This document shows, one piece after another, positions 3 to 19,995 of a stretch of DNA of 64,000 nucleotides. The notes below the pieces were generated by a model. The model was given only the letters and a program-made list of their open reading frames with translations, did not search any database and was not told where the DNA came from. Numbering within the stretch: position 1 is the stretch's first letter; every line of letters begins with the position of its first letter. The stretch is from NCBI GenBank assembly GCA_022820805.1, contig JAJEEV010000013.1:80967-144966 (forward strand), in the 5' to 3' direction. The position numbers and the translations under genes are program-made. This DNA is from Acidimicrobiia bacterium (GTDB taxonomy: Bacteria > Actinomycetota > Acidimicrobiia > Acidimicrobiales > Aldehydirespiratoraceae).

Positions 3-3000
3 CGGCTGTCACAGTCCTACGCGCTGATGACGCTGGAACGCCTGGGCTGGCAGCGCACCGAGGGCGAGTCGGTGGAGCCGGATGGGCTGCGCGAGCAGCT
101 CGGCGTGCTGCCCGAGCACAGTCGCCTGTTCCGCCGGCTCTTCGAGATGCTGGCCCGAGCGGGCGTGGTCGAAGCCTCCGATGACGGGTTCGTCGTCAGG
201 CCCCGTCCCGAGGATCACAGCCCGCCGACGCTGCCCGCGGACGCCGAGGCGTTCGGGTCGGATATGGCGGACCGCTACGAGCACGGCTCGACCGAGATCG
301 GGCTGTTCCGGCGCAGCGCCGAAGCCCTGAGCGAGGTTCTGGTGGGCGATGCCGATCCGTTGACGCTGCTGTTCAGCAGCGGCGAGCCCACCGCGGCCGA
401 CCTGTACCTGAAGGCACCGGTGGCCAGGGCGGCCAACCAGATGCTGGCCGACGCGGTGGCAACCCTGCTCGAACAGATGCCCGACGGGCGCAGGCTGCGG
501 GTGATCGAGGTCGGGGCAGGCACGGGGTCGGCCACGGCCGCGGTGCTGCCCCAACTGCCCGAGGGTCGCTTCGACTACACCTACACCGATATCTCCGCTG
601 GCTTCTTCGCCGAGGCCGAGGGCCGTTTCGGCGGGCGTGCGGCGTCGATCGAGTACCGGGTGCTCGACATAGAGCAGGACCCGGGCTCCCAGGGCTTCGA
701 CTACCACGCCTACGACCTGGTGATCGCGTCCAACGTGCTGCACGCCACCCGCTACCTGTCCGAGACACTCGAGCACTGCCGGGATCTCCTGGCGCCGTCG
801 GGTCATGTGGTGGCTCTGGAGAACCTGAGAGGGCAGGGCTGGCTGGACCTGACCTTCGGGCAGCTGGACGGCTGGTGGCGCTTCGCCGACTCCTGCCGCC
901 CCCACCATGCCCTGGCCAGTCCCGCGGTCTGGCGGCAGGCACTCGACGACGCCGGCTTCGAGGGGGTCGAGGTCCTGGGCGCCGATGAAGCCGATCCTGA
1001 CGTCGAGCCCGACCGGGGCGTGATCCTGGCCCAGGGTCCGGCCGACGTGACCGAACGGCCCGGAGCGTGGGTCCTGGCCGCGGGCCGGGGCGGCCTGGCC
1101 GCCGAACTGGCCGAGAGGCTGGCGGCCCTCAACCAGACAGTGGTGCTGGCCAGCGGCGAGTCGTCTCCCGACACGGGCTCGGTGCCCGACGGAGTTGCTG
1201 CCGCGGTGATCGACATGGAGAGCCGGACCGAATGGCTCGAACTCCTCGGGACCCTCCCGCCCGGCCTCCCCCTGAACGGGGTCGTGCATCTCGCCGCGAC
1301 CGACGCCCACGGGGCGGGGGCCACCACCGAGCAGATGGCGACCGCAGTGAGGCGGGCCGGCGCCAGCGCGCTGGCGCTGGTGCAGGGCCTGGCCGACGCC
1401 GACGCGACCCCGACCAAGGGCGTGTGGTTCGTCACCCGTGGAGGCCAGGTGCTGGACCACGAGTCCGTCGAGGGCGTGGCCGGCGCGGTGCTGTGGGGCC
1501 TCGGGAAGGTCACAGCCCGCGAGGCCTCCCATCTCCAGCCGAGGATGATCGATCTGGACCCGGCCGCCGCGGAGCTGCCGCCCGACATACAGGACGAGTT
1601 CCTGCATCCCGATTCTGAGACTCACATCGCCTACCGCGTGGGACGCCGCCAAGCAGCCCGGCTGGTCCGGTTCGGCGCCGACGCCGGCGGCGCCGAACGG
1701 CTGAAGCTGCCCGAGCCGGCCGGCGAGACACCCTGGCTGCTCGAGCCCGACGAGGGCGGCGCGCTGGACGGACTGCGTGTGGAGACCGTCCCGGCCCGAC
1801 CGCTGGAACCGGGCGAGGTGCGGGTGGCGGTCGAGGCCACCGGACTCAACTTTTGGGACATGTTCCGATCCCTCGGCGTTATCGACGAGGGCCTGCTGGG
1901 AGGCGAGTTCTGCGGGCGGGTGCTGGAGGCCGGGCCGGGCGTGAGCACAGTCCAGGAGGGAGACCGGGTGGTCGGCCTCGCCTTCGGCACCTTCTCGGCG
2001 GAGGCGGTGATGCGCGAGGAAATGGTGGCACCGGCCCCACCTCACATCGGTGTCACCGCGCTGGCGACCATGCCGACCGCGTTCGTGTCGGCCGCCCTGT
2101 CGTTCGATCTCGCGGAGCTGAAGGCGGGCGACCAGGTGCTCATCCACGCGGCCGCCGGCGGCGTCGGCCTGGCTGCCGTCCAACTGGCCCAGGCCGCCGG
2201 AGCCGAGGTGTTCGCCACCGCCAGCGCTCCGAAGCAGGCCTACCTGCGCTCACTGGGCGTAGAGCACATCTTCGACAGCCGATCGACGGCCTTCGGCGAG
2301 CAGATCCTCGAAGCCACCGGCGGTGAAGGCGTCGATGTGGTGCTCAACAGCCTCACCGGACCAGGCTTCATCGACGCCAGCCTGTCGTGCCTGGCCCGCG
2401 GGGGCCGGTTCGTGGAACTGGCCAGGGTCGACATCCTGAGCCACGACGAGATGTCACAAGGCCGGCCCGACGTGGGCTACTGGATCCTGGAACTGGACGT
2501 CCTGAAGGAGCACGACCCCGCCCGGCCGGGCGACGCCCTCAGGCGGGTGATGCACCGCCTGGCCGCCGGCGAGTTGGCCCCGCTGGTGCACACCAGGTGG
2601 TCGCTGGCCGAGGCCGGTGCAGGCATGGAGTTCATGCGGGCCGCCCGCCACATCGGCAAGATCGTCTTCGCGGCCTCCCCGCTGGAGACAGGGCGGCTGC
2701 GCGGCGACCGGACCTACCTGGTCACTGGAGGCCTGGGCGGGATCGGCTGCACGGTGGCCGGATGGCTGTTCGATCGAGGCGCCGGTGCCATAGTGCTCAA
2801 CGGCCGGCGCGACCCGGACCCCGAAGCCGCCGAGGCCATCGCCGAGCTGCGCGAGCGGGGCGCGACGGTGAGCGTCGAGTTGGCCGACATCACCGACGCT
2901 GGCGCCGTGGACGCCATGCTGGCCCGAGTCTCCGACTCCCTGCCGCCGCTCGCGGGCGTCATCCACAGCGTGGGGGTGCTGTCCGACGCGGCCCTGACCA

Positions 3001-5333
3001 ACCAGAGCTGGGAGAGTTTCGAGAGGGTGCTGTGGCCCAAGGTGCTCGGGGCCTGGCACCTGCACCGGGCGACCGAGGACCGTGACCTCGACATGTTCGT
3101 GCTGTTCTCCAGCGTGGCCGGCGTGCTGGGCAACCCGGGCCAGGCCAACCACGCCGCGGCCAACGCGTTCCTCGACGTGCTCGCAGCCCACCGGCGTTCG
3201 CTGGGATTGGCAGGGCAGTCGATCGCGTGGGGGGCATGGTCGGGGCTGGGCGAGGCCGAGGAGCAGCGCGAGCGGATAGCCGCGCAGCTCGAGGCCGCGG
3301 GCACGGGCTGGATCACCCCCCAGCACGGCATGCGAGCCTTCGACCATCTCGTCCGCCAGGACACGACCGCGCCCATGGTGGCCGCGGTGGACTGGCAGAC
3401 GGTGGCCGACGATCACGAGAGCCGTTCGCCCCTGCTGGAGGACCTGCTGGCCGCGGTGGCCGGCCAGGCCGAAGGCCGCCAGGACTCACAGGCCGACCTG
3501 CTGGCCGAGTTGGGGGCATCGCCCGCGACGGAGCACGAACAGATCCTGGCCGGATTCCTGCAGCGAGAACTGCAGGCGGTGATGCGCCTGCCGGACCTTC
3601 CGGCTCCCTCCGTCGAGTTCGCCGACCTGGGAATGGACTCCCTGATGGCGGTGGAGTTGAGGAACCGCGTCAACCGCGGCTTCGCGGGCGCGTACACCGC
3701 CGGCAACACCGTGGTCTTCGACTACCCGAGCGTCCAGAGCCTCGCGGCCTACCTGGCAGCGGAGCTGGCCGAGTCGGGCGGCATCGAAGCGCCCGACGGC
3801 ACGGGGGAAGGACGCTTCGCCATCCAGGCCCCCGCCGCCACGGGCGGCACCGAGGCGGTCCAGGAGGCTGTTCAGCCGGAGAAGGTCCAGCCGGACCAGG
3901 ATCAACGGGACCAGCAGCAAGCAGACGTGCCGGAGCGTCCGGCACCGAAGGCGGTCGCACCCGTCATGCCGTCTAGTCCAACCGCCAACGACGGGATCGC
4001 CATCGTCGGGATGGCCTGCCGGTTCCCCGGCGCGCCCGACCTGGACAGCTTCTGGCGCATGCTGGAGGCGGGCAAGAACGCAGTAACGGACGGGCGGCCG
4101 GATCCGGGTCCCTGGAACGGCGCGTTCGGGGACCCGGCCAACCGGGATGCCAGCAGCCGAGTCGGTGCCTACGTGGAGGGCATCGACCGGTTCGATGCGG
4201 GCTTCTTCCGGATCAGACCGATCGAGGCCCGCATGATGGACCCGCAGCAGCGCATGCTGCTGGAGACGACCTGGCACGCCCTCGAGGACGCCGACATCGA
4301 CCCCGCCGGCCTGAAGGGGAGCCGCACCGGGGTGTACGCCGGGATCGGCGGCAGCAGCGAGTACCGCAGAGTCATCGCCGCGGCCGGACGGGGCGACAGC
4401 TACTTCGGCACCACCTCGAGCGTGGCCGTCGGGAGGATCGCATTCACACTGGGACTGGCCGGGCCGGCCGTGCCCTTCGACCTGGCCTGCGCGTCGTCGC
4501 TCGTCGCCATTCACCATGCAGTCACCGCGCTCCAGCGGGACGAGGTCGACATGGCTCTGGCCGGAGGGGCGAACGCAGTCCTGTCCCCGTCGATCGCGAG
4601 GTTCCTCGAAGAGACCGGCATGCTGTCGGCCAGCGGGCAGTGCCGAGCCTTCGACGCGGGCGCCGACGGCTACGTTCGAGGCGAGGGCTGCGGCATGGTC
4701 GTGCTCAAGCGACTGGACGATGCCGCCGCCGACGGCGACCGGATCTGGGGCGTCGTGCGGGGCACGGCAGTCAACCAGAATGCAACTGGCCTGGGCCTTA
4801 CGCAACCCAACGGTCCGGCGCAGATGCAAGCGATGGAACAGGCGCTAGAGCGAGCGGCGGTGGCACCTGCAAACGTGGACTATCTGGAGGCGCACGGACC
4901 GGGGTCACCGTTGGGCGACGCGGTCGAGATGAATGCGGCCGCGACCGTCTACGGAACCGGCCGCGACCCTGAGCGGCCGCTCCTGGTCGGATCGGTCAAG
5001 ACCAACATCGGTCACCTGGAGTGCGCGTCGGCCGTCGCCGGTCTCATCAAGGCAGCGCTGGCCATGAACCGGGGAAAGATCCCCAGGCACCTGCACCTGA
5101 GCGAGCCCAGCGAGCAGATCGACTGGGAGCGAATGCCGGTTCGGGTGACGACCGAAGTGACAGACTGGCCGGCCGCTCCTGGTCGGCCCCGGTTGGCCGC
5201 GGTGAACTCGTTCGCCATCTCGGGTGCCAACGCCCACCTCGTGCTCGAGGGTGAGGCCCGACGCCGGATCTCATTGCCGGGCTATCCGTTCCAGCGCCGA
5301 CGGCACTGGGTCGAACCGCTGGGTTCCGAATAA
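3..5333 (+). CDS. Type I polyketide synthase, C-terminal part (N-terminus upstream of window): cMT - structural KR - ER - KR - ACP - terminal KS with no AT
   Basis: Track ORF 27..5333, but the frame is open back to nt 3 (RLSQSYAL precedes the first Met). Motifs in the translation: SAM-MT VIEVGAGTGSAT; ER LIHAAAGGVGLAAVQLA; KR TYLVTGGLGGIG; ACP LGMDSLMAVE (Ser codon 3639-3641). KS motifs: IAIVGMACRFPGA, DLACASS (Cys codon 4488-4490), EAHGPGSPLGD, KTNIGHLE. The protein ends SGANAHLVLEG...PGYPFQRRRHWVEPLGSE. Confidence 0.93.
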   Translation, partial: RLSQSYALMTLERLGWQRTEGESVEPDGLREQLGVLPEHSRLFRRLFEMLARAGVVEASDDGFVVRPRPEDHSPPTLPADAEAFGSDMADRYEHGSTEIGLFRRSAEALSEVLVGDADPLTLLFSSGEPTAADLYLKAPVARAANQMLADAVATLLEQMPDGRRLRVIEVGAGTGSATAAVLPQLPEGRFDYTYTDISAGFFAEAEGRFGGRAASIEYRVLDIEQDPGSQGFDYHAYDLVIASNVLHATRYLSETLEHCRDLLAPSGHVVALENLRGQGWLDLTFGQLDGWWRFADSCRPHHALASPAVWRQALDDAGFEGVEVLGADEADPDVEPDRGVILAQGPADVTERPGAWVLAAGRGGLAAELAERLAALNQTVVLASGESSPDTGSVPDGVAAAVIDMESRTEWLELLGTLPPGLPLNGVVHLAATDAHGAGATTEQMATAVRRAGASALALVQGLADADATPTKGVWFVTRGGQVLDHESVEGVAGAVLWGLGKVTAREASHLQPRMIDLDPAAAELPPDIQDEFLHPDSETHIAYRVGRRQAARLVRFGADAGGAERLKLPEPAGETPWLLEPDEGGALDGLRVETVPARPLEPGEVRVAVEATGLNFWDMFRSLGVIDEGLLGGEFCGRVLEAGPGVSTVQEGDRVVGLAFGTFSAEAVMREEMVAPAPPHIGVTALATMPTAFVSAALSFDLAELKAGDQVLIHAAAGGVGLAAVQLAQAAGAEVFATASAPKQAYLRSLGVEHIFDSRSTAFGEQILEATGGEGVDVVLNSLTGPGFIDASLSCLARGGRFVELARVDILSHDEMSQGRPDVGYWILELDVLKEHDPARPGDALRRVMHRLAAGELAPLVHTRWSLAEAGAGMEFMRAARHIGKIVFAASPLETGRLRGDRTYLVTGGLGGIGCTVAGWLFDRGAGAIVLNGRRDPDPEAAEAIAELRERGATVSVELADITDAGAVDAMLARVSDSLPPLAGVIHSVGVLSDAALTNQSWESFERVLWPKVLGAWHLHRATEDRDLDMFVLFSSVAGVLGNPGQANHAAANAFLDVLAAHRRSLGLAGQSIAWGAWSGLGEAEEQRERIAAQLEAAGTGWITPQHGMRAFDHLVRQDTTAPMVAAVDWQTVADDHESRSPLLEDLLAAVAGQAEGRQDSQADLLAELGASPATEHEQILAGFLQRELQAVMRLPDLPAPSVEFADLGMDSLMAVELRNRVNRGFAGAYTAGNTVVFDYPSVQSLAAYLAAELAESGGIEAPDGTGEGRFAIQAPAATGGTEAVQEAVQPEKVQPDQDQRDQQQADVPERPAPKAVAPVMPSSPTANDGIAIVGMACRFPGAPDLDSFWRMLEAGKNAVTDGRPDPGPWNGAFGDPANRDASSRVGAYVEGIDRFDAGFFRIRPIEARMMDPQQRMLLETTWHALEDADIDPAGLKGSRTGVYAGIGGSSEYRRVIAAAGRGDSYFGTTSSVAVGRIAFTLGLAGPAVPFDLACASSLVAIHHAVTALQRDEVDMALAGGANAVLSPSIARFLEETGMLSASGQCRAFDAGADGYVRGEGCGMVVLKRLDDAAADGDRIWGVVRGTAVNQNATGLGLTQPNGPAQMQAMEQALERAAVAPANVDYLEAHGPGSPLGDAVEMNAAATVYGTGRDPERPLLVGSVKTNIGHLECASAVAGLIKAALAMNRGKIPRHLHLSEPSEQIDWERMPVRVTTEVTDWPAAPGRPRLAAVNSFAISGANAHLVLEGEARRRISLPGYPFQRRRHWVEPLGSE

Positions 5334-5414: not shown

Positions 5415-5660
5415 ATGTCATCTACCGAAGACCGCCTACGCGCCCTCGTGGACTCCAGCCTTGAGATCGAGGGCCGGTCGCAAGGCCAGCCGCTGACTCC
5501 GGACCTCAACATCCTCGATGCGGGCGTCAACTCGACGGATGTGGTGGCGTTCTGGAGACTCGTCTGCGAGGAGTTCGGCATCGAGATTCCGGCCGAGGAG
5601 TTCGCCGAGCTCATGACGACGGGCGATCTGATCGCATACATCGACGCCCGGAGCGGCTGA
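5415..5660 (+). CDS. Discrete acyl carrier protein (phosphopantetheine-binding)
   Basis: 81-aa ORF with an AAAGGA Shine-Dalgarno just upstream. Acidic carrier-protein-like sequence with LDAGVNSTDVV at the usual GxDS attachment site. It lies between a PKS ending in a KS and a PPTase. Confidence 0.72.
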   Translation: MSSTEDRLRALVDSSLEIEGRSQGQPLTPDLNILDAGVNSTDVVAFWRLVCEEFGIEIPAEEFAELMTTGDLIAYIDARSG

Positions 5661-5732: not shown

Positions 5733-6443
5733 GTGTCTGCTGGTATGGAGGCCAAGTGGTGGCAGCCGTTCAGGCAGCTTGACGATGTCGAGGTCGTGCA
5801 TGTTGATCTGTGCCCTGACGCGCCCAGAGAGCAGCGCGCCCGGACCTGGCTCGACGATGAGGAGCGCCAGCGAGCGGACCGCTTCCAGCATGAGGGGGCC
5901 AGGCGCCGGTACGTGCTGTGCCGCGCGGCGCTGCGCTCGCTGCTGATTAGCGCGCTCGACTGCCGCAACCAGCAACTCGCCTTCAAGGCGGCCGAGCACG
6001 GAAAGCCCTTCGCAACTGTCGACGGCCAACCGGCGCTGGTCAGCTTCAACGTCAGCCACAGCGGCCGGCACGGCTTGATCGCGCTGACTTGCCGGGGACG
6101 GGTTGGCGTGGATGTCGAGGAGCGGGTGCCGCAGCGCAATCTCGACCTTCTGGTCGGGGCCGTTCTCAGCCCCGAGGAGCGGGCCGAGGTGACCGCCGCC
6201 CGAGGACGCCGTCAGCTCCATCTGTTCCTCGATCTGTGGACGATGAAGGAGGCGCTCAGCAAGGCCCACGGCGAGGGCCTCTCCATGGACGTGGCCGCCT
6301 TCGAGATTCCCCGCCATCTGCGCAACGGCGCCAGGGGCGGGGAGTTCCGGTTCGCAGACGCCCTCGACGCCGCCTGGTGGCTGGAGAACATCGGCACGGA
6401 CCGCTTCGCGGCCGCGGTGGCCCACGAGAGGGACAGACGATGA
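5733..6443 (+). CDS. Sfp-type 4'-phosphopantetheinyl transferase
   Basis: Motifs FNVSHSGRHGLIAL, VGVDVEE and WTMKEALSKAHGEG are typical of group II PPTases. The track start at 5733 is GTG; the ATG at 5745 is an alternative. Confidence 0.85.
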   Translation: MSAGMEAKWWQPFRQLDDVEVVHVDLCPDAPREQRARTWLDDEERQRADRFQHEGARRRYVLCRAALRSLLISALDCRNQQLAFKAAEHGKPFATVDGQPALVSFNVSHSGRHGLIALTCRGRVGVDVEERVPQRNLDLLVGAVLSPEERAEVTAARGRRQLHLFLDLWTMKEALSKAHGEGLSMDVAAFEIPRHLRNGARGGEFRFADALDAAWWLENIGTDRFAAAVAHERDRR

Positions 6444-7369
6444 CCTCCGCCCTGCCCATGCGGGCCGTGACCGATGCCGAGACGGAGGCGTTCCACCGCG
6501 ACGGTGCGGTGCTGCTGCGCGGTGTGCTAGCGGCCGAATGGGTCGAACTGGTGGCCGACGGCCTGGAGGAGTGCTTCACCGAACGCGACCACATGTCCAG
6601 CGAGGTGGTGGCCCAGGGAGCGACCGTGAGGGCCGACCAGTTGCTTGCGGCCCGGTCGGCCAGCCTCCACCGTTTCGCCAACGATTCGCCCGTCGGCGGT
6701 CTCGTGGGCTCGGTCGTGGGCGGCCCGGTGCGCTTCTACATGGACCAGATGTTCTTCCGCCGGGCGGGCGTGATGGCCCCCACTCCCTGGCACCAGGACA
6801 TCAGCTACCACAACGTGGAGGGCACGGACCTGGTACGAGCCTGGACGTCACCCGATCCGGTACCCCGCTCCGCCAGCCTCGAGGTGGTCCGTGGCTCTCA
6901 CCGATGGAACGTCACCTACCGGCCGATGGTGGGTCTCGACCCCGACATGTCCGATGAGGAGAACGCATTGCGGATGGCGCTGGCCCGCAAGCGCGGCGTC
7001 TACGAGAAGGGCGGCGAGGAGTTCGCCTATCGCAGGGTCGTGATGGACAAGTCGTTGCCGGCCACGCCCGACGTGCCCCGCGACCGGGACTCCTTCGACA
7101 TCATGGGATGGGACTACGAGCCCGGTGACGTGATCCTGTTCCACGGGAACCTTCTCCACGGCACAGCCGAGGGCGTGACCCTGCACCGCGACCGGCGGGC
7201 GTATGCCGCCCTGTTCGCCGGTCCGAACGCGCGTTACGTCAAGCGCGTCGGTCAGATGGTCCCGGATCCTCCCGGCCTGGCCGACCACGAACCGCAGACT
7301 GGCCAGACCCTCGACAGCTTCGGTGACGTGTTCCCCCTGGTTTGGGCGCCGGAAGACTGCTTGCGATAG
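6440..7369 (+). CDS. Phytanoyl-CoA dioxygenase (PhyH) family Fe(II)/2-oxoglutarate oxygenase
   Basis: The in-frame ATG at 6440 overlaps the PPTase stop (ATGA at 6440-6443). The 5' part of track ORF 6089..7369 is Arg/Gly-rich out-of-context translation. It has a WHQDISY HxD triad and a distal His in NLLHGT. Confidence 0.8.
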   Translation: MTSALPMRAVTDAETEAFHRDGAVLLRGVLAAEWVELVADGLEECFTERDHMSSEVVAQGATVRADQLLAARSASLHRFANDSPVGGLVGSVVGGPVRFYMDQMFFRRAGVMAPTPWHQDISYHNVEGTDLVRAWTSPDPVPRSASLEVVRGSHRWNVTYRPMVGLDPDMSDEENALRMALARKRGVYEKGGEEFAYRRVVMDKSLPATPDVPRDRDSFDIMGWDYEPGDVILFHGNLLHGTAEGVTLHRDRRAYAALFAGPNARYVKRVGQMVPDPPGLADHEPQTGQTLDSFGDVFPLVWAPEDCLR

Positions 7370-11015: not shown

Positions 11016-11216
11016 ATGGAAGCTGCAGGAGTGCCATCGTCCGCCGTCCCGACAGACACGCTGGCCACCACCAAGGACTTGCAGGTTCTCGAGTCGAGAC
11101 TGATCGCCGAACTCCACAAGGAGATCGCAGAGTTGACCAGGACGATGATGAGGGTCGCGTTGATGATGGTCGCCGCTTTCGCGGGAGCGCTGGTCACCGT
11201 CGCGCTCGTCGTGTGA
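11016..11216 (+). CDS. Small coiled-coil protein with C-terminal transmembrane anchor (hypothetical)
   Basis: The ATG at 11016 is in frame with track ORF 10920..11216 and preceded by GGAAGGA. Sequence KDLQVLESRLIAELHKEIAELTRTMM is followed by the hydrophobic tail VALMMVAAFAGALVTVALVV. Confidence 0.5.
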   Translation: MEAAGVPSSAVPTDTLATTKDLQVLESRLIAELHKEIAELTRTMMRVALMMVAAFAGALVTVALVV

Positions 11217-11257
11217 GCAGCGTTCGCAGGAGCCGTGGAGTCGAGAGGAGCAACGCC

Positions 11258-11617
11258 ATGGGAGCGACCCACGTCACCGTCACCGTCCGCAACCCCGCCG
11301 ACCGGGACCGGTCGTGGGAGGGCCTGTTCCTCGTCGACACCGGTACGACCGACAGCCTGGTGCCGCGGCAGCACCTTGAAGCGATCGGTCTGGAACCCCG
11401 AGGCAGCCGCACCTACGAACTGGCTGACGGCAGCGCCGTCCGGTTCGATGTCGCCGGCGCGGACATCGAGTTCATGGGCGAGTACGTCGCGACGACCGTG
11501 CTCTTCGGCGACGACGACACCGAGCCCCTGCTGGGAGTCACTGCGCTGGAGTCGGTTGGCATAGAGGTGGACCCGCGGAACCAGCAACTGAAGCGACGGC
11601 CCGCCGTGCGGCTCTAA
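11258..11617 (+). CDS. Retropepsin-like (clan AA) aspartyl protease family protein
   Basis: ATG at 11258 preceded by GAGAGGAG. DTG active-site motif in LFLVDTGTTDSLVP. The ~119-aa size is typical of single-lobe bacterial retropepsin-like proteins. Confidence 0.72.
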   Translation: MGATHVTVTVRNPADRDRSWEGLFLVDTGTTDSLVPRQHLEAIGLEPRGSRTYELADGSAVRFDVAGADIEFMGEYVATTVLFGDDDTEPLLGVTALESVGIEVDPRNQQLKRRPAVRL

Positions 11618-11771: not shown

Positions 11772-12941
11772 ATGACGGTCCTCACCGACGATCTCCTGGC
11801 CAGCTTCGACGACTCGGTCGGTCCGGTGGACGAGGCCAGGCTGCTGCCGCCGATCCTGTACACGTCGCCGGAGTTCTACGACTTCGAGCGGCGGGCCATA
11901 TTCCAGCGGGAATGGCTCTGCGTGGGCCGGGCCGACCAGCTGAAGGAGCCCGGCGACTACCGCTGCATCACCATCGCGGGCGAGCCCCTCATCGCGGCCC
12001 GGGACGCCGACGGCGAGCTGAGGGTGATGTCGGCGGTGTGCCGGCACCGGGGAATGGTGATCGCGGAGGGTTCGGGCAACTGCCGCCGGTTCACATGCCC
12101 GTACCACCACTGGACCTACGGCCTCGACGGGACGCTGCTCGGGACCCCGGCCATGGACAGGGCCGTGGGATTCGACCGGTCCGAGCATCCGCTGCCCCAG
12201 CTCAAGGTGGAGCTGTGGCAGGGGTTCATCATGGCCAACTTCGATCACGACGCCCGCCCGTTCGGCCCCACCATGACCAAGATCGACGAGATGCTCGTCA
12301 ACTACGGGCTGGAGTCGACGGCCACGCTGGAGGGCAAGACGATCCCGGACCTTCCCTGGAACTGGAAGGTCATGATGGAGAACTTCAACGACCCCTACCA
12401 CGCCAGCCGGCTCCACGGGCCGCTGCAGACGTTCGCACCGAGCCACATGAACGACTTCCTGCCATGGGACGACGACGACGGCGCGGTCGGCCGGATCCAG
12501 CACTTCACCGACATCGACGGATCGTTCAACCCGACCAAGCGCTGCATCCTGCCGGTGTTCGCCAACCTCACCACCGAGCAGCGCAAGCGGGGCGGGTTCG
12601 TGCTCATACCCCCCACCCTGGCCCTGGCCATCGTCCCCGACGAGGTCGCCTACTTCATCATCAGCCCCCAGGGGCCCGGCCACATCACCATCAACATCGG
12701 CTACTGCTTCGAGTCCTCCGCACTGGAGGACCCCATGTTCGAGTACCTGTTCGAAGCGGCCGAGGCCGGCGTCAACAACTTCAACATGCAGGACATCTAC
12801 GCCGACGAGATGACCCAGAAGGGCCTCAACTCGCTGCTGGCTCCCCGGGGCCGCTACTCGTGGCAGGAGGAGACGCTGGTGCAGTTCAACCGCTGGCTGG
12901 TGAGGCGCTACCGCCGGCACTGGCCCTCCAACGGAGCCTGA
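11772..12941 (+). CDS. Rieske non-haem iron oxygenase, alpha-only type (substrate unknown)
   Basis: AAGGAG RBS. Rieske motif CRHRGMVIAEG...CPYHHWTY. Iron site NWKVMMENFNDPYHASRLH. No beta subunit follows. Confidence 0.9.
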   Translation: MTVLTDDLLASFDDSVGPVDEARLLPPILYTSPEFYDFERRAIFQREWLCVGRADQLKEPGDYRCITIAGEPLIAARDADGELRVMSAVCRHRGMVIAEGSGNCRRFTCPYHHWTYGLDGTLLGTPAMDRAVGFDRSEHPLPQLKVELWQGFIMANFDHDARPFGPTMTKIDEMLVNYGLESTATLEGKTIPDLPWNWKVMMENFNDPYHASRLHGPLQTFAPSHMNDFLPWDDDDGAVGRIQHFTDIDGSFNPTKRCILPVFANLTTEQRKRGGFVLIPPTLALAIVPDEVAYFIISPQGPGHITINIGYCFESSALEDPMFEYLFEAAEAGVNNFNMQDIYADEMTQKGLNSLLAPRGRYSWQEETLVQFNRWLVRRYRRHWPSNGA

Positions 12942-12973: not shown

Positions 12974-13651
12974 ATGGACCCGGACCGCACCATCACCTTC
13001 GACCCTGGCGAGAACCAGCCCATGGACCGCCAGTTCATGCTGTCGCAGCTGGTGGTTCCCCGGCCCATCGCCATGGTCTCGACCCGCAGCCCCGACGGGG
13101 TCGCCAACATCGCTCCCATGAGCTACTACCTGCCCATAACCGGCGACCCCATGCTGCTGGGAATCACCATGGGCCTGCGCGAGGACGGGCAGCTCAAGCA
13201 CACCTACCTCAACGCCATGGCCAGCGGCGACTTCGTCGTCAACGTCACCAGCGAGGCGTTCCGCGACGACATCGAGACCGTGGCCATGGAGTGCCCGGGC
13301 AACGTCGACGAGTTCGACCTGGCGGGGTGGACCACGGTTCCGGCCACCAAGGTGAGTTCGCCCGCCATCGGGGAGGCCCTGGCCCGCCTGGAGTGCGTGG
13401 TGCACAAGGTGGTGGACCTGGGGACGCCGGACCGGGTGTTCGGGGAAGTCCACCTCGTGATCGGCGAGGTGGTGTGGGTGGCCTACGACTCGGCCATCTG
13501 CGGCCCCAATGGCCGCATCGACCCGCTGCGCCTGGGCGCGATCGCACGCCTGGGCCTGCGCACCTTCCTGCGCACCGTGGACGAGGGCGCCTATTCCCTG
13601 CAGCGCACGCCATGGGCCGACTTCGTCGCGGCCGACGGCTCGACCAGCTAG
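12974..13651 (+). CDS. Flavin reductase-like FMN-binding (split-barrel) protein
   Basis: ATG at 12974 (AGGGAG RBS) in frame with the 3' part of track ORF 11912..13651. VVPRPIAMVSTRSPDGVANIAPMSYY is the typical flavin-reductase-domain core. Confidence 0.8.
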   Translation: MDPDRTITFDPGENQPMDRQFMLSQLVVPRPIAMVSTRSPDGVANIAPMSYYLPITGDPMLLGITMGLREDGQLKHTYLNAMASGDFVVNVTSEAFRDDIETVAMECPGNVDEFDLAGWTTVPATKVSSPAIGEALARLECVVHKVVDLGTPDRVFGEVHLVIGEVVWVAYDSAICGPNGRIDPLRLGAIARLGLRTFLRTVDEGAYSLQRTPWADFVAADGSTS

Positions 13652-13717: not shown

Positions 13718-14712
<995 letters not shown>

Positions 14713-14716
<4 letters not shown>

Positions 14717-15756
14717 CCGCGGCCGACACCGCCGCCCCGAAGCGGGCGGCCCGCACTCCCCGCAAGGCCCGGGACCGGGTCCGCAAGGTCGCCTTCACCC
14801 GGGCCCTCAACGATGCGCTGGACCTGGCCATGTCCAAGCACGACGAGATGTTCGTCATCGGCGAGGACATCGCCGAGATGGGCGGCGACTTCGGCGTCAC
14901 CAAGGGTCTGCTGGCCAAGTACGGGCCCGAGCGGGTGCGAGACACGCCCCTGTCGGAGGCGGCCATCATCGGCACCTGCGCGGGCGCGGCCATGGTCGGC
15001 ATGCGCCCGGTGGCCGAGATCATGTTCGCCGACTTCATCGCCGAGTGCTACGACCAGGTCGTCAACAACGTGGCCAAGATGCACTACATGTTCGACGGGC
15101 AGTTCAAGGCGCCGCTGGTGATCCGCACCGCCTGCGGGGGCGGGTTCGGCGGCGGGCCGCACCACTCCCAGAGCGTGGAGGGCTGGTTCCTGAACGTGCC
15201 CGGCATCGTGATCGTGGCCCCGTCCAACCCGGTCGACGCCAAGGGCCTGCTGCTGGCATCGATCGACAGCGACGACCCGGTCCTGTTCCTGGAGCACAAG
15301 GCCCTGTACCGCAGCCGGGCCGAGGTGCCCCCCGAGTACTACACCACCCCGCTGGGGCAGGCTGCCATCGCCCGCGAGGGCAGCGACGTGACCGTGGTCG
15401 CGGCCATGCGGATGGTGCCCATGGCGCTGGAGGCCGCCGAAGAGGCCGCCGACGCCGGCGTCGCGGTGGAGGTCGTGGACCTCAGGACCATCCGGCCCTA
15501 CGACGCCGAGACGGTGCTGGCCTCGGCAGCCAAGACCGGCCGGGTGGTGGTGGCCAACGAGGCGCCCAAGATCGGCGGGCTCGGCGCCGAGCTCAGCGCT
15601 CGCATCAGCGAGGAGTGCTTCAGCGACCTGAAGGGACCGGTGGTGCGCGTCGACGGCCTCGACACCCCCATCCCCTTCTCGGTGCCCCTGGAGGACGTGG
15701 TCCTGCCCGACGCGCAGGACATCGCGGCCGCCGTCAGCACCGCAGCCCAGTACTGA
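14713..15756 (+). CDS. 2-oxoacid/acetoin dehydrogenase E1 beta subunit
   Basis: The ATG at 14713 overlaps the E1-alpha stop (ATGA). VFVIGEDIAEMGGDFGVTKGLLAKYGPERVRDTPLSEAAIIG and a C-terminal transketolase-like domain. The 5' part of track ORF 14461.. is out of context. Confidence 0.92.
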
Positions 15757-15787: not shown

Positions 15788-16057
15788 ATGGCCACCGATG
15801 TGATCCTGCCCAAGTGGGGCCTGACCATGGAGGACGGCACCGTCGTCGCGTGGTATGTGGACGAGGGCGACCATGTAGTGGAGGGCGAAGTGATCGCCGA
15901 AGTGGAGACCGAGAAGGTGGAGAACGAGCTGGAAGCACCCTGCGCCGGAGTGGTGGCCCGGATACTCGTGGACGAGGATGAGACCGTCGATGTGGGCACC
16001 GTGCTGGCGGTGATCGCCGGCAACGAGGCCGAGGCCGCAGCCATCGCTGGGGGTTGA
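15788..16057 (+). CDS. Free-standing lipoyl-attachment domain protein (E2 N-terminal domain only)
   Basis: 89 aa, AGGAGGG RBS. Lipoyl-lysine context VIAEVETEKVENELEAP (Lys codon 15914-15916). The stop at 16055-16057 is immediately overlapped by the next gene. No acyltransferase core follows. Confidence 0.85.
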   Translation: MATDVILPKWGLTMEDGTVVAWYVDEGDHVVEGEVIAEVETEKVENELEAPCAGVVARILVDEDETVDVGTVLAVIAGNEAEAAAIAGG

Positions 16058-16836
16058 TGATGAGACCTGATCGCTTCACAGGCGACACCGTGTTGATCAC
16101 CGGCTCGTCGCGGGGGATCGGTGCGGCCACGGCCCAGGCCTTCGCGGCCGAGGGAGCCAAGGTGGCGGTCAACTACCGCAGCGACGCCGCGGGCGCGGCG
16201 GCCACCCACCAGGCCATCGTCGACGCCGGCGGGGTCGCCGAGGTGTTCCAGGCCGACATCGGAAACGAGGCCGACGTGGCCCGTCTCGCCCGGCAGGTGG
16301 AGGACTCGCTGGGCCCGGTGTCGATCCTAGTCAACAACGCCGCCCTCATCGACCGGTCGTCGATGTCTGACCTGTCGCTGGAGGCGTTCGACACCGTCTG
16401 GCAGGCCAATGTGAGAGGGCTGTTCCAGCTCAGCCAGCTGGTGGCGTCCGGCATGGTGGAGCGGGGCCGGGGAGCCATCGTGAACCTCAGCTCGATCCTG
16501 GCCCGGCTGGGAGTGGCCAACCGCTGCGCCTACATCGCGTCCAAGGGCGCGGTGGAGGGCCTGACCCGGGCCATGGCGCTGGAACTGGGCCCCAGGGGCG
16601 TGCGGGTCAACGCGGTGGCCCCGGGCCTGATCGCCACCGAGGCGCTGCTGGCCGGGATGCCCGACCCTGAGGTGCAGACCGCGATCCAGCGTCACATCCC
16701 CGAGGGCCGGTTCGGCCGGCCCTCCGAGATCACCGCGGCCATCCTGTTCGCGGCGTCGCCGGAGGCCAGCTACGTCAACGGCTCCGTCATCGCGGTGGAC
16801 GCCGCCCTCGGCGCCCGCGAGTCCACCCCCGCCTGA
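16057..16836 (+). CDS. Short-chain dehydrogenase/reductase (FabG / butanediol-dehydrogenase-like)
   Basis: TGSSRGIG cofactor motif, NNAAL, and catalytic YIASKGAVEGLTRAMA. The track start is TTG at 16054; ATGs at 16057/16060 are more likely. Confidence 0.9.
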   Translation: MMRPDRFTGDTVLITGSSRGIGAATAQAFAAEGAKVAVNYRSDAAGAAATHQAIVDAGGVAEVFQADIGNEADVARLARQVEDSLGPVSILVNNAALIDRSSMSDLSLEAFDTVWQANVRGLFQLSQLVASGMVERGRGAIVNLSSILARLGVANRCAYIASKGAVEGLTRAMALELGPRGVRVNAVAPGLIATEALLAGMPDPEVQTAIQRHIPEGRFGRPSEITAAILFAASPEASYVNGSVIAVDAALGARESTPA

Positions 16837-16868: not shown

Positions 16869-17828
16869 ATGATCAGCATCAACCGTGAAGCCATGAAGAC
16901 GGTGCGGCTCATCCTGGATGAGGCCGACGCACTGGGCGTGACCGTCGACCGGCTCGACAACGGCAGCACCGTCATCGACATGGGCCTGCACGCCAAGGGA
17001 GGCTGGCGGGCCGCCCAGCTCTACACCCTGGCCAGCCTGGGCGGGCTCGGCACCGTGAGCTACGAGCCCTTCGAGCTGGCTGGACGGATGCTCACCGCGG
17101 TGCGGGTGATGATCGATCACCCCATCGAGGGCTGCGTGGCGTCGCAGATCGCAGGATGGCGCCTGCAAGCCCCCGGCACCGAGCACGCCGCCATCCTCGC
17201 CGGGCCGGGCCGGGCCCTGAACCGCGACAGCCTGGACCACTACTTCGAGTGGATCGACTACCGCGACGAGCATCACGAGGCGGTGGTGGCCATCCAGACC
17301 TCCGAGCCGGTCCCGGTGGAGATGGCCGACATGATCGCGTCGTCGTGCCGGATCGATCCCGGCGACCTCTACGTGCTGTTCGCCCCCAACCGCAGCCTGG
17401 TGACCGCGGTGCAGGTGGCGGCCCGGATCGTGGAGCAGTCCCTGCACCGGCTGGCCGAGGAGGGCATGGACCTGCGGGGACTGCGCTACGCGTACGGCCT
17501 GGGCGTGGTGCCGCCGCTGGTGGACGACGACCTGGTCTCGATGGGCCGCATCAACGACAGCCTCCTGTACGGGGGGATCTCCAACGTCACCGTGGACGGC
17601 GACGACGCCCAGTGCGCGGAGATCGTGGAGCGGGTGGTGTCGGTGGCCTGCGAGGCCTACGGCCGCCCGTTCATCGAGATCTACGAGGACGCCGGGCGGG
17701 ACTTCTACGAGATTCCCATTGAGCTGCACTCCCCGGCCGAGATCCACCTCACCAACCTGGCCAGCGGAAACACCTTCAGCGCCGGACACATCAACCACGA
17801 GGTGCTGACCGCCTCATTCTTCAGCTAA
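16869..17828 (+). CDS. mch: Methenyltetrahydromethanopterin cyclohydrolase (Mch) family protein
   Basis: AGGAG RBS. End-to-end resemblance to remembered archaeal/methylotroph Mch. The N-terminus ISINREAMKTVRLILDEADALGVTVDRLDNGSTVIDMG matches the pattern VSVN.EA...V..MIE.A.EL...V..L.NG.TVID.G. The C-terminus matches as well: GRPFIEIYEDAGRDFYEIP...NLASGNTFSAG.IN.E.L. ~320 aa, as for Mch. Confidence 0.82.
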   Translation: MISINREAMKTVRLILDEADALGVTVDRLDNGSTVIDMGLHAKGGWRAAQLYTLASLGGLGTVSYEPFELAGRMLTAVRVMIDHPIEGCVASQIAGWRLQAPGTEHAAILAGPGRALNRDSLDHYFEWIDYRDEHHEAVVAIQTSEPVPVEMADMIASSCRIDPGDLYVLFAPNRSLVTAVQVAARIVEQSLHRLAEEGMDLRGLRYAYGLGVVPPLVDDDLVSMGRINDSLLYGGISNVTVDGDDAQCAEIVERVVSVACEAYGRPFIEIYEDAGRDFYEIPIELHSPAEIHLTNLASGNTFSAGHINHEVLTASFFS

Positions 17829-17892: not shown

Positions 17893-18231
17893 GTGGCAGC
17901 ACCGGAAGCGCTCAGCGTCCCAGGCGACAGCACCGCTGCCGGGCCGGAGGTCGTCGTGCGGGCCGCTTCGCAACGGATGCCGCAGCTCATCCCCATCGCC
18001 CAGTTGGTCGCCGTCGTGCTCGGAGTGTTCGCCATCATCTGGCACCAGCAACAGACCACCGACAATCTGCGCACCGAGCTGATGGCCGAGATTGGTGGCG
18101 TCGAGACCGGGCTGGGCGCCGAGATCACCTCACTGCGGGCTGAGGTGGCCGAGAACGGGCAGCGGCTGGCCCGCATCGAGGGGTTCCTCGGGATCGGGGT
18201 CCCCGACGTTTCGCCACCATCGAATCCGTGA
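17893..18231 (+). CDS. Small membrane-anchored coiled-coil protein (hypothetical)
   Basis: Track ORF. Hydrophobic segment LIPIAQLVAVVLGVFAIIW followed by LRTELMAEIGGVETGLGAEITSLRAEVAENGQRLARIEGFLG. Its stop overlaps the next gene's start (GTGA). The alternative start is the ATG at 17977. Confidence 0.5.
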   Translation: MAAPEALSVPGDSTAAGPEVVVRAASQRMPQLIPIAQLVAVVLGVFAIIWHQQQTTDNLRTELMAEIGGVETGLGAEITSLRAEVAENGQRLARIEGFLGIGVPDVSPPSNP

Positions 18232-18950
18232 CACTGCAGCACCCTCTCGTGGCGGTCGTTACTGGCGCCGGGTCGGGGATCGGACTTGCCTGCGCGGGGG
18301 CGCTGGCGACTCGGGGCGCTCACTGCGTACTGGTGGGGCGCCGGCAGGACAGGCTTGAGGCCGCCGCGGCCGCGCTGGACAGCCCCGCGGCCGTTCTGCC
18401 CGCCGACCTGGCCGAGCCGAACGAGGCCGGGCGGATCGTTGCCGAGACGCTGGCCGCGTACGGCCGTATCGACGTGATCGTGCACAGCGCCGGCGTCTTC
18501 GAGAAAGCGCACGTGCCGGAGGTGACCGAGGACCACTGGCAGCGCGTCATGGACGTCAACCTCGGAGCGGTGATGGCCCTCACCGGCGCCGCCTGGGAAC
18601 CGCTGGCCGCGTCCAGCGGGCAGATCGTGCTCATAAGCAGCGTCGCCGCGGTGCAGGCCTTCGAGGGCAACGCGGCCTACGCGGCGTCGAAGGGCGGGCT
18701 GAACGCGCTGGGGGAGGTGCTGCGGCTGGAGGGGCGCGACAGGGGCATCAGGGTGATCACGCTGTCCCCCGCTCAGATCGACACGGCGCTCTGGGATGAC
18801 AAGGCCCCCGACCGCGTCAGGGCCCGTATGATGCCCGCCACCGGGGTGGGCGAACTGGTGGCCGACCTGGTGGGAACCGACCGGCGCATCGACATCGCCC
18901 CCGTCGTCATACGGCCGGTTCGCGACCCTTGGGTAGAGCCCGAGCCATGA
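18228..18950 (+). CDS. Short-chain dehydrogenase/reductase
   Basis: VAVVTGAGSGIGLA Rossmann motif and catalytic YAASKGGLNALGEVLRLE. Confidence 0.88.
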   Translation: MTLQHPLVAVVTGAGSGIGLACAGALATRGAHCVLVGRRQDRLEAAAAALDSPAAVLPADLAEPNEAGRIVAETLAAYGRIDVIVHSAGVFEKAHVPEVTEDHWQRVMDVNLGAVMALTGAAWEPLAASSGQIVLISSVAAVQAFEGNAAYAASKGGLNALGEVLRLEGRDRGIRVITLSPAQIDTALWDDKAPDRVRARMMPATGVGELVADLVGTDRRIDIAPVVIRPVRDPWVEPEP

Positions 18951-18984
18951 GCACACCGAGCGACCTGCCGGCGGTGACACTGCC

Positions 18985-19995
18985 ATGAGCACCGACCAGA
19001 TTGCTCTGGGACTGCAGATCGTCCCGACCATGGGCTCGGCCGAGTTGATCGACACGATCGTGGTGGCCGAGGAATTGGGCTACTCGTACTGCATGGTGGC
19101 CGACGAGGGCTTGATGCTCGACGTGTACGCGGTGCTGGGCGCCGCGGCCCGCATCACCAGCACAATCCGGCTGGGGGCGGTCACCAACCCCTACACCCGC
19201 CACCCGGCCGCCACCGCGGCCGCCCTGGCCACCGTCGACGAGATGAGCGGGGGCCGGGCCTTCGTGACCCTGGTGGCGGGCGGCACCATGGTGCTGCACC
19301 CCATGGGACTCCAGCGGTCGGCGCCCCTGGCCCTGATGGCCGACACCATCACCGCCCTGCGGCTGCTGTGGCGGGGGGAGCCGGTCACCTGGCAGGGACG
19401 GCGGCTGTCGCTGGAAGGGGCCCAGCTCACCACCGGCACCCACTCGATCCCGATCTGGGTCGCGGCCCGGGGCGAGAGGATGCTGGAGCTGGCCGGCACC
19501 CACGCCGACGGCCTGATGCTGATGGTCAAGTCCGATCTCGGCGACGCCTTCGGCATCGCCGAGCAGGCCCGGCAGGCGGCCGGGACGCAGGCCGGTGATG
19601 GACGCGGGGGCGCCCCGCTCATGCGGGCCTACCTCGACCGGCTGGCGTACCGGCCCGAGATGATCGAGGAGGCCAAGCACCTCTACGGCTACGCCATCAT
19701 GGACAGCCCGCCCCGGATCCTCAGGAACCTGGGCCTCGACGACGATGAGATCGCCGGCTTGAAGCACGCCTTCGCCCAGGGCGGCCCCGAGGCTGTGGGC
19801 CAGCTCGTGACCGACGAGCTGGTGGCCTCCTACCAGATCGCGGGCACTCCCGCCGAGTGCCGCGACCAGCTGGAGCACCTGATCGGCGCGCACCGGCTCG
19901 ACGCCTTCTTCGTGAACATCATCTCGCCGGGCCTGCCCGCCAACCGTGATCTGCTCACCGAGGTGAAGGCGATAGCCGCGGAAGCCTTGCGATAA
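18985..19995 (+). CDS. Luciferase-like monooxygenase (LLM) class oxidoreductase, F420-dependent methylene-H4MPT reductase (Mer)-like
   Basis: N-terminal TIM-barrel LLM pattern LGLQIVP...AEELGYSYCMVADE. VTNPYTRHPAATAAALATVDEMSGGRA closely matches the Mer-type NPYTRHP segment as remembered from archaeal Mer. That segment is shared by many actinobacterial F420 LLMs. Confidence 0.85.
   Translation: MSTDQIALGLQIVPTMGSAELIDTIVVAEELGYSYCMVADEGLMLDVYAVLGAAARITSTIRLGAVTNPYTRHPAATAAALATVDEMSGGRAFVTLVAGGTMVLHPMGLQRSAPLALMADTITALRLLWRGEPVTWQGRRLSLEGAQLTTGTHSIPIWVAARGERMLELAGTHADGLMLMVKSDLGDAFGIAEQARQAAGTQAGDGRGGAPLMRAYLDRLAYRPEMIEEAKHLYGYAIMDSPPRILRNLGLDDDEIAGLKHAFAQGGPEAVGQLVTDELVASYQIAGTPAECRDQLEHLIGAHRLDAFFVNIISPGLPANRDLLTEVKAIAAEALR

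Follow-up and report, generated by a model that had tools for sequence, protein, structure and literature searches.

The question raised by the locus described here is whether nineteen genes that follow one another on a single strand, over 20 kb, serve one pathway. The locus lies in a stretch of 64,000 nucleotides from an Acidimicrobiia bacterium (assembly GCA_022820805.1, contig JAJEEV010000013.1, positions 80,967 to 144,966), to which we refer as the window. Between positions 3 and 19995 it joins the end of a polyketide synthase (PKS), an acyl carrier protein (ACP) as well as a phosphopantetheinyl transferase (PPTase; gene PPT) to Rieske oxygenases, an amidase, a split 2-oxo-acid dehydrogenase and homologues of Mch and Mer, two enzymes of tetrahydromethanopterin (H4MPT)-dependent one-carbon (C1) metabolism. 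The original prediction, made from the letters alone, proposed that the E1/lipoyl part produces an uncommon acyl group, which the discrete ACP receives for use by the terminal ketosynthase (KS), and named as its alternative that a biosynthetic cluster and a catabolic cluster are mere neighbours. It is the alternative that the comparative data support. Four units make up the mosaic of the array, namely a Sup-like PKS cassette, a low-GC Rieske insert, an amidase unit and a module marked by the Mch homologue. It is probably a tightly packed, lineage-specific juxtaposition of separately evolving units, and not one biosynthetic pathway.

The fourth unit (13718-19995) bears most directly on this question. 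Its genes, like all those of the array, lie on the plus strand. E1a (13718..14716; E1_dh), the alpha subunit of a thiamine diphosphate (TPP or ThDP)-dependent E1 enzyme, is followed by the beta subunit E1b (14713..15756; Transket_pyr and Transketolase_C), whose start overlaps the E1a stop. Next come Lip (15788..16057; Biotin_lipoyl), a free-standing lipoyl carrier of 89 amino acids with its lipoyl-lysine in the motif ETEKV, and the short-chain dehydrogenase/reductase SDR1 (16054..16836; FabG/BudC-like by Pfam and NCBIfam). The signature gene of the module, a methenyl-H4MPT cyclohydrolase homologue of the Mch family (16869..17828; PF02289, 1e-100), then precedes the filler open reading frame (ORF) u112, a second dehydrogenase, SDR2 (18228..18950; Pfam and NCBIfam), and LLM (18985..19995; Bac_luciferase), a luciferase-like oxidoreductase nearest to Mer. 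The closest PDB entry to E1a is the pyruvate dehydrogenase (PDH) E1 alpha subunit, and E1b passes the NCBIfam cut-off for the PDH E1-beta subfamily. Lip best matches the N-terminus of an acetoin-dehydrogenase E2, and the two SDRs resemble butanediol dehydrogenase. No E2 catalytic domain (PF00198-like) follows Lip, or is found anywhere in the 64-kb window.

This module is not restricted to the array. Relatives of Mch at 64-94% identity occur in Acidimicrobiia, Ilumatobacteraceae and Caldilineaceae, and the window E1a is 71-75% identical to the module E1a of distant lineages and phyla. An orthologous Lip gene of 87-89 codons is present in every module locus, LLM comes after Mch in nearly all of them, and an SDR2-like gene follows Mch or LLM in L094, L096, L097, L099, L117 and L119 (compared loci are labelled L001 and so on). 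All five annotated distant loci (L087, 5571-12123; L088, 6261-11954; L089, 6167-12105; L117, 6131-12736; L118, 6278-11982) have the order E1a-E1b-Lip-E2cat-SDR-Mch-(SDR)-LLM, in which E2cat is a separate ORF of about 232 amino acids encoding the E2 catalytic domain, and none of the five contains a PKS or ACP. Among the mapped loci with enough upstream sequence, E1a-E1b-Lip was found in 11/11 and E2cat in 9/11, and the only one with ACP or PPT was the sponge-clade contig L090. Altogether, no PKS or ACP was found in 14 module loci outside the PKS-bearing group. L089 carries a second, divergent MCH paralogue as well (18417-19385, minus strand; 34% identical), beside an aldo-keto reductase and an FGGY kinase.

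The decisive case for the autonomy of the module is L119, which comes from the same 3.15-Mb genome as the RieA2 locus L025. Here the module (6796-12900) stands alone between SecA/S30AE and UvrD, 1.3 Mb from RieA2; its Mch is 84% identical to that of the window, and no PKS, amidase, RieA2 or E2cat is present at the module. E2cat is also absent from L102, L010 and L023; these loci, like L119, lack a PKS, and the loss of E2cat is therefore not linked to the PKS. The fourth unit is thus an autonomous module of Actinomycetota and of probable Chloroflexota loci, where it is usually accompanied by a separate gene for the E2 catalytic domain.

The histories of the units differ as well. Mantel tests on pairwise identity matrices (Spearman r) were carried out with the 11 genomes that carry every unit. 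Distances in the PKS correlate with those in ACP/PPT (r=0.74, p=0.001), and distances in the amidase (Amid), RieA2 and the flavin reductase-like gene FlvR correlate with those in the module genes (r=0.81, p=0.0005). The corresponding values are r=0.14 (p=0.16) for PKS versus module and r=0.03 (p=0.39) for ACP/PPT versus module. Genes within a unit are therefore congruent, and PKS and module are incongruent. The window and L007, for example, are 96% identical in the module and 77% in the PKS, and the L007 PKS is 91-93% identical to the PKSs of genomes whose modules match that of L007 at 88-91%. Such distances imply that the PKS cassette has been exchanged independently of its neighbours, its position remaining unchanged.

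Composition is stratified along the array, a feature that the original prediction had not seen. In a window with a GC content of about 70%, the GC content at third codon positions (GC3) is 0.83-0.88 from the PKS to the PhyH gene, 0.73-0.76 in the Rieske genes RieA1 and RieB1, and 0.93-0.97 in most genes from RieA2 to LLM. Together with the restriction of RieA1 and RieB1 to a single lineage (see below), these strata point to separate histories of the units, in the same direction as the Mantel tests.

How constant is the array among close relatives? Its host is a sponge-symbiont member of the Acidimicrobiia (Aldehydirespiratoraceae/UBA11606), a family that includes a sponge-symbiotic lineage (PMC11706023), and the exact ACP sequence is present on sponge-study metagenome scaffolds and in one metagenome-assembled genome (MAG). 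A scan with the central Rieske gene, RieA2, in one genome per species returned 80 loci. Those at 84-99% identity all belong to Acidimicrobiia MAGs ('Candidatus Aldehydirespirator'/Aldehydirespiratoraceae, GTDB UBA11606), many of them from sponge studies, and orthologues at 64-99% identity occur in sponge-associated Acidimicrobiia and Gammaproteobacteria. When all window proteins were compared with the sister loci by tblastn, the colinear order PKS-ACP-PPT-(PhyH)-Amid-(sm66)-(AspP)-RieA2-FlvR-E1a-E1b-Lip-SDR1-Mch-(u112)-SDR2-LLM was recovered in about 16 species. The original prediction was to be abandoned if the PKS and E1/Mch parts proved always separate and never co-conserved, and this is not what the family shows. 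Its companion question, whether ACP-PPTase and E1ab-lipoyl-SDR-Mch co-occur, has a divided answer: the two are neighbours in these species, and each is found elsewhere without the other.

Within the family, the order is broken in several ways. The block from Amid to LLM occurs without a PKS in six or seven species (L010, L012, L014, L023, L024, L027), and the PKS is absent from about one-third of the block-bearing sister species. The plus-strand block begins with the amidase in L010, L012, L014, L023 and L027, and in the two of these whose upstream ORFs were examined (L010 and L023) the preceding genes are on the minus strand. L024 has kept its catabolic block, and a decayed PKS, a remnant of 209 amino acids from the KS C-terminus (6686-7315), lies there between a permease gene and the amidase. 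Conversely, Amid and RieA2 are present without Mch genes nearby in L025 and L028-L030. In six loci a permease gene on the minus strand splits E1b from Lip, and the array is therefore not an obligate single operon. L016 has its nearest PKS fragment (57% identical) at 1-2859 on the minus strand and ACP-PPT at 6886-7882 on the plus strand; this strand switch suggests a rearrangement at the PKS cassette.

Could the array nevertheless be one biosynthetic supercluster, in which an acyl unit from E1ab and the lipoyl carrier reaches the terminal KS by way of the discrete ACP, and the product is then modified by Mch, LLM, the amidase and the oxygenases? The conserved gene order in some 16 species, with its tiny gaps, speaks for such a cluster, and the lipoyl carrier of this lineage, having no E2 catalytic domain, requires another acceptor for an acyl-lipoyl group. 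We nevertheless regard this reading as very unlikely. The 14 module loci without PKS or ACP and the incongruent histories of PKS and module tell against the proposed transfer, as do the absence of E2cat already from loci that have no PKS (L119, L102, L010, L023), the loss of the PKS cassette and retention of the block in L024, the occurrence of Sup-like cassettes without the module, and the position of the ACP, which adjoins the PKS and is 10 kb away from Lip.

The precedent on which the original prediction drew, that of the quinocarcin and naphthyridinomycin (Qnc and Nap) systems, is real (PMC6335953, PMC7570522). In Qnc and Scl, one protein combines the lipoyl domain with the catalytic domain of an acyltransferase, a dedicated ACP is adjacent, and the acyl group feeds a non-ribosomal peptide synthetase (PMC6335953, PMC7570522). 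The window resembles QncN/QncL/QncM (NapB/NapD/NapC; SclQ1-4) in having a two-component ThDP-dependent E1/transketolase-like enzyme (E1_dh with Transket_pyr/Transketolase_C), a lipoyl domain, and an ACP and PPTase in the locus. It differs in the two features that define the system. The lipoyl domain is joined to its acyltransferase catalytic domain in QncL and SclQ4, whereas Lip is a lone protein of 89 amino acids and no acyltransferase catalytic domain is encoded in the 64 kb. Neither is there a dedicated, co-conserved ACP: that of the window belongs to the PKS cassette and co-varies with the PKS, and the module elsewhere has E2cat and no ACP (0/14 of the outside loci).

Three observations weigh against a complete separation of the units. 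First, colinear adjacency in about 16 species, often with a gap of just 20-60 bp between PPT and the amidase gene, may reflect co-transcription and some shared role. Second, a non-orthologous E1ab-E2 set recurs directly upstream of Sup-like PKSs in two other loci. These are L114 (4915-20669) and L116 (4849-21110), from Gemmatimonadota-type sponge MAGs, in which PDH-like E1a, E1b and a full E2 precede the PKS on the same strand; PhyH-like and WelO5-like genes (Fe/2-oxoglutarate halogenase family) lie divergently upstream. That these sets represent the same system as the window E1 was considered and ruled out, since they are 37-45% identical to it (37% for the PKS-adjacent E1a of L114) against the 71-75% seen within the module family; the E1 beside the L114 PKS is a different family, and counts against the supercluster.

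Third, one subfamily of NCS2 permeases, unusually long at about 585 amino acids and 39-52% identical between lineages, is common to Sup-like PKS loci of other phyla and to the Mch module of this family. It is encoded beside the Sup-like PKSs of L115 and L116 and beside the KS remnant of L024, as well as inside the Mch module in six Aldehydirespirator loci; the window holds no copy. Genes of this NCS2/xanthine-uracil-permease type were located in L115 (8250-10004), L116 (21259 to the end), L014 (6001-7761), L024 (4931-6682) and L008 (13909-15744, minus strand), and L113 has a SulP transporter in its place. Because the permease flanks Sup-like PKSs too, it is not assignable to one unit, and its use as a sign of a nucleobase substrate for the block is weakened. 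From the E1ab-E2 and NCS2 recurrences taken together, a functional link between the PKS and 2-oxo-acid dehydrogenases is conceivable and, in our view, very unlikely.

A less demanding alternative is that the units are biochemically independent and are held together by selection in a co-regulated 'supra-operon', in which, for example, catabolism of nitrogen compounds of the host induces the cluster and supplies acetyl-CoA for methyl-branched lipids. The packing of the array speaks for it. ORF listing and GC3 frame analysis confirm the 19 plus-strand genes that had been called, and so do the genes called independently on a metagenome scaffold of identical sequence. Of the four-base overlaps that had been reported as ATGA or GTGA, those at 6440 (ATGA), 14713 (ATGA) and 18228 (GTGA) stand, and that at 16054 is TTGA; a further GTGA overlap at 11213 is possible, contingent on the choice of start codon. 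The widest intergenic gap is 154 bp (11617/11772), and the next is 127 bp (10888/11016). The 20 kb yielded no terminator-like site, against 4.6 expected from shuffled sequences, in a scan that is weak at such a GC content. A promoter scan was uninformative, its single candidate being on the wrong strand, and neither the window nor any of seven module loci gave an Rfam match. The short PPT-to-amidase gaps in many species and the constant position of a PKS cassette that is swapped among genomes also fit co-regulation. On the other side, the PKS is missing from about a third of the block-bearing sister species, the opposite-strand permease gene interrupts the module in six loci, and homologous replacement through shared flanks can account for the stable position. 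We therefore consider a supra-operon rather unlikely, though clearly less so than a supercluster, and return to the array as a juxtaposition of units, each of which has its own relatives. All domains named by the original prediction were recovered with Pfam and NCBIfam. The substrates and reaction steps proposed below for these units are ones that we infer.

The first unit consists of an upstream hydrolase gene and positions 3-7369. The window contains the C-terminal 1776 amino acids of the PKS (3..5333; cMT-ER-KR-ACP-KS2 by Pfam, where cMT is a C-methyltransferase domain), with window residue 1 corresponding to residue 1296 of a protein of 3071 amino acids. The full protein, on L001, is a single module with the order KS-AT-DH-cMT-ER-KR-ACP-KS. 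The KS-AT-DH part expected upstream is thus present, on the same protein; the loading modules that had also been envisaged, or any further modules, are not, and an alpha/beta hydrolase gene takes their place, giving the order Abhydrolase_6-PKS-ACP-PPT on L001. Both KS domains keep the Cys-His-His residues (DLACAS/HGPGS/NIGH in KS2), and the S-adenosylmethionine motif of the cMT, VIEVGAGTGS, is intact. The AT specificity motif, YHSA, is ambiguous, and the extender unit cannot be called from it. The PKS is followed by the discrete ACP (5415..5660; 81 amino acids, PP-binding), an Sfp/HetI-type 4'-phosphopantetheinyl transferase (5733..6443; ACPS and AASDHPPT_N, best NCBIfam match HetI) and, as an optional member of the cassette, a PhyH-family Fe(II)/2-oxoglutarate oxygenase (6440..7369; PhyH), whose start overlaps the PPT stop. 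PhyH was found solely in PKS-bearing loci, always between PPT and the amidase; its nearest solved structures are MysH and ectoine hydroxylase.

Reportedly, ACP, PPTase and hydrolase genes lie beside the PKS in the original description of SupA, the 'sponge symbiont ubiquitous PKS' (Fieseler 2007, Hochmuth 2010). Sup PKSs are small, monomodular, sponge-specific and very diverse, and mid-chain-branched fatty acids have been suggested as their products (PMC3908369, PMC4245539, PMC4210886). The unit resembles them in architecture, as a single module like that of a fatty acid synthase with a C-methyltransferase, in its accessory genes (L001, with the same set in L113) and in a distribution restricted to sponges across many phyla. 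KS2 has relatives at 55-90% identity in MAGs assigned to Dehalococcoidia, Gammaproteobacteria, Acidobacteria, Gemmatimonadota and further groups, whose bin names refer to sponge studies. They are diverse and sponge-associated, with a sponge origin that was not confirmed sample by sample; no hit named SupA was among them. The PKS of L114, from a Gemmatimonadota sponge MAG, is 57% identical over its full length, including the terminal KS. The Sup-like PKS loci of other phyla (L113-L116) lack the Mch module; L113 has ACP, PPTase and hydrolase beside its PKS, and L116 an ACP. By architecture, distribution and the original description, the unit is assigned as a putative Sup-type cassette. It differs from earlier attributions, to Poribacteria or Deinococcus-Thermus, in that its producer belongs to the Acidimicrobiia. 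To our knowledge, no published description of Sup mentions a PhyH partner, a recurrent NCS2 permease or an adjoining catabolic block.

From this architecture, the PKS module would extend an acyl chain by one C2 unit, alpha-methylated and fully reduced. In a condensation with malonyl carried by the discrete ACP, KS2 would then pass the chain on to further elongation. The upstream hydrolase is predicted to release the product, a methyl-branched fatty acyl chain, which PhyH may hydroxylate.

The second unit (7413-9262) comprises RieA1 (7413..8741; Rieske and Ring_hydroxyl_A), a BenA-like Rieske oxygenase alpha subunit with a GC content of 0.61 and a GC3 of 0.76, and the beta subunit RieB1 (8768..9262; Ring_hydroxyl_B; GC3 0.73). 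Both genes are confined to the window's own lineage and are absent from the loci of other species; orthologues of RieB1 are in L001-L003 only. Metagenomes contain very large numbers of relatives at 64-70% identity, of which those that bear a name are from Chloroflexota. The pair thus appears to be a recently acquired low-GC insert encoding an alpha/beta Rieske dioxygenase.

The third unit (9296-13651) opens the catabolic part of the array with an amidase-signature amidase (9296..10888; Amidase), for which the nearest PDB entries are AtzE (6c62) and GatA. RieA2 (11772..12941) is a Rieske monooxygenase alpha subunit of the quaternary-amine group by Pfam, with carnitine monooxygenase CntA as its best PDB match (1.6e-36) and GbcA as its best NCBIfam match. 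It is followed, in most sister loci too, by FlvR (12974..13651; Flavin_Reduct), its presumed electron donor. RieA2 resembles CntA, GbcA and Stc2 in being a Rieske oxygenase without a beta subunit and in having these enzymes as its best solved and NCBIfam relatives. Its score of 120 lies well below the family cut-off of 670, however, and its partner is a protein with a flavin-reductase domain and not a CntB/GbcB-type reductase. Unit 3 may attack an N-methylated or quaternary amine or amide, and methylated amines derived from the host would fit.

Three ORFs of the array had not been named before. Two are alike in design, each with a coiled coil and one transmembrane helix, lie within the catabolic block, and are poorly conserved among sister loci: sm66 (11016..11216; 66 amino acids, the helix C-terminal, no family match), which is present in many of them, and u112 (17893..18231; 112 amino acids, no family match), which is 46-73% identical where present and is absent from several. 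That sm66 might serve the AtzE-like amidase as its small subunit, in the manner of GatC or AtzG, was considered and ruled out by its coiled coil and C-terminal transmembrane helix and by the missing family match. The third, AspP (11213..11617; TIGR03698; start at 11258 according to the gene caller), is a small protein like clan AA aspartic proteases, and is sporadic, occurring outside the window's own lineage just in L007 and L013.

Further genes of the window, at 54047-56440, 57360-59590 (minus strand) and 59672-62222, encode a DUF1989-GcvT fusion (like the trimethylamine N-oxide demethylase Tdm), malate-thiokinase-like and malyl-CoA-lyase-like proteins, a class-V aminotransferase and a flavin monooxygenase-like, Tmm-like protein. 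The genes at 54-62 kb look like a methylated-amine and serine-cycle set in an Acidimicrobiia symbiont. With the CntA/GbcA-like RieA2, the AtzE/GatA-like amidase and these Tdm-, Tmm- and serine-cycle-like genes in one window, catabolism of quaternary or methylated amines of the host would fit.

What, then, does the Mch module do? Its neighbours in distant lineages include xanthine dehydrogenase (XDH) subunits, XdhC, YqeC, M20 peptidases, OTCase-like and PALP proteins, nucleoside ABC transporters and HTH-cupin regulators, with an SsnA-like amidohydrolase directly after LLM and a D-hydantoinase nearby that passes its equivalog cut-off. In the described reductive uric-acid pathway, a putative F420 luciferase-family reductase was noted to replace YgfK in Chloroflexota, and the end product is pyruvate (PMC12507026). 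Judged by annotation, the module's neighbours would essentially match the gene set of this pathway and its 2,8-dioxopurine counterpart (XdhD, YgfK/UacX, SsnA, HyuA, YgeW/UacY, YgeY, YgeX; PMC12507026). The LLM of the module stands where the F420 luciferase-family reductase was noted, and pyruvate is a substrate of PDH-type E1; in contrast, E1ab, the lipoyl carrier, the SDRs and Mch lie outside the described pathway. Partial sets flank the module in L087-L089, L097, L104, L106 and L107. In the window, homologues of SsnA, HyuA and YgeWXY are not adjacent to the module, and an XDH-like enzyme and an ATP-dependent hydantoinase A/B lie 20-28 kb from it.

The window has a second neighbourhood of N-heterocycle catabolism, 14-28 kb from the module (33816-48218), which comprises a Bmp/PnrA-type nucleoside ABC transporter, a 2-oxoglutarate oxygenase, the XDH-like enzyme (a small Fer2 subunit at 38995-39537 and a fused Mo/FAD protein at 39336-42956), an AMP-ligase and the ATP-dependent hydantoinase B/A (44500-48218). 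Directly after LLM, a gene of the histidinol-dehydrogenase family (20034-21425, minus strand), which passes the hisD domain model, is divergent from a bicupin gene (21452-22414, plus strand). L018 likewise has a HisD-like gene close to its module, and L007 and L022 share the bicupin-ROK-GH4 set.

The two enzymes that give the module its character are homologous over their full lengths to the H4MPT-dependent Mch and Mer of methanogens and methylotrophs. The chemistry of these families, hydrolysis of a cyclic amidinium and flavin- or deazaflavin-dependent reduction of a C=N bond on a pterin, would suit the opening of a reduced N-heterocycle. They differ from their relatives in their setting, an aerobic heterotrophic actinobacterial lineage in which one operon combines the genes with those for SDRs and for an E1/lipoyl system of the PDH type. 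This system in turn resembles acetoin and pyruvate dehydrogenases in its heterodimeric TPP-dependent E1 and lipoyl acceptor. It differs from them in that E2 is split into the lipoyl protein and, in other lineages, the catalytic domain, with no E3-binding domain, and in that the sponge clade has no catalytic part at all.

In the scheme that we propose from these families, the Mer-like LLM would act on a ring of the purine or pterin type and dearomatise it by reduction, and the Mch-like enzyme would hydrolyse the resulting cyclic amidine to a formamide, by chemistry like that which converts methenyl- to formyl-H4MPT. The SDRs would oxidise hydroxyl intermediates, and the PDH-like E1/lipoyl(/E2) system would oxidatively decarboxylate a 2-oxo-acid end product, such as pyruvate. 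This specific sequence, in which LLM reduces the heterocycle, the Mch-like enzyme opens the amidine and E1/lipoyl oxidises the 2-oxo acid, is put forward tentatively, and we would sooner expect it to need revision than not. Slightly better placed, though still short of probable, is the more general proposal that the module represents a widespread and so far undescribed catabolic pathway of Actinomycetota and probably of Chloroflexota, in which Mch and Mer homologues act on a substrate other than H4MPT, and that sponge symbionts lost E2cat and gained the linkage to a quaternary-amine oxygenase and a Sup PKS.

The obvious competitor takes Mch and Mer at face value. In it, units 3 and 4 together would be a methylated-amine/C1 route that begins with the demethylation or cleavage of a quaternary amine by the CntA/GbcA-like Rieske enzyme. 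The C1 unit, bound to a pterin like H4MPT, would then be oxidised or reduced with the help of Mch, Mer and an SDR that stands in for Mtd. Mch scores 275 bits with the TIGR03120 equivalog, above the cut-off of 228.8, which counts against the substrate proposed above. It is about 45% identical over its full length to the archaeal Mch 1QLM, and the ARxVE motif, which we take to be the site of the catalytic Arg and Glu, is kept in the window and in 115/120 family members. LLM has Mer as its best NCBIfam match (178.6 bits, the next family scoring 81), and its PDB matches at E<=1e-10 are Mer structures only; it nevertheless fails the Mer cut-offs (178.6 against 276 for PRK02271 and 161 against 348.7 for TIGR03555). 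SDR1 and Mch overlap or abut in many loci, as if translationally coupled, and the Tdm-like, Tmm-like and serine-cycle-like genes at 54-62 kb would have a place in such a route. The company that the module keeps points elsewhere. In the six module loci annotated with Pfam, calls within ±10 kb included no Fae, Mtd, Ftr/Fhc or H4MPT-biosynthesis gene, the remaining loci having been mapped against a reference set free of C1 genes. Among the 38 module loci mapped or annotated, none outside the sponge clade carried RieA2. The neighbours are amidohydrolases, XDH, M20, OTCase-like and PALP proteins and not C1 genes, and a PDH-like E1/lipoyl/E2 set fits no known H4MPT pathway. A genuine C1 route is unlikely, and we rank it below heterocycle catabolism. 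Nothing relevant on Mch-like proteins in catabolic or PKS clusters, or on H4MPT genes in Acidimicrobiia, was found in the searchable literature, and the Mch/Mer-like module is apparently undescribed.

A genome-mining tool, or a reader, would call these 20 kb one exotic hybrid cluster, and the comparison averts the false report of a new class of biosynthetic gene cluster. As a cluster type, the array is ordinary, in all likelihood a known sponge-specific kind of PKS that abuts catabolic genes. Its first unit places putative Sup-type PKSs in Acidimicrobiia symbionts, as a cassette that is swapped between genomes independently of its neighbours. The part worth following up is the module that contains Mch and Mer homologues. 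There, these proteins are joined to a split 2-oxo-acid dehydrogenase in organisms without an obvious H4MPT metabolism, and annotation pipelines will present them as enzymes of methanogenesis or methylotrophy. If the module does open reduced purine or pterin rings, it would represent a new branch of the recently discovered reductive degradation of purines, and a new case of the recruitment of C1 enzymes.

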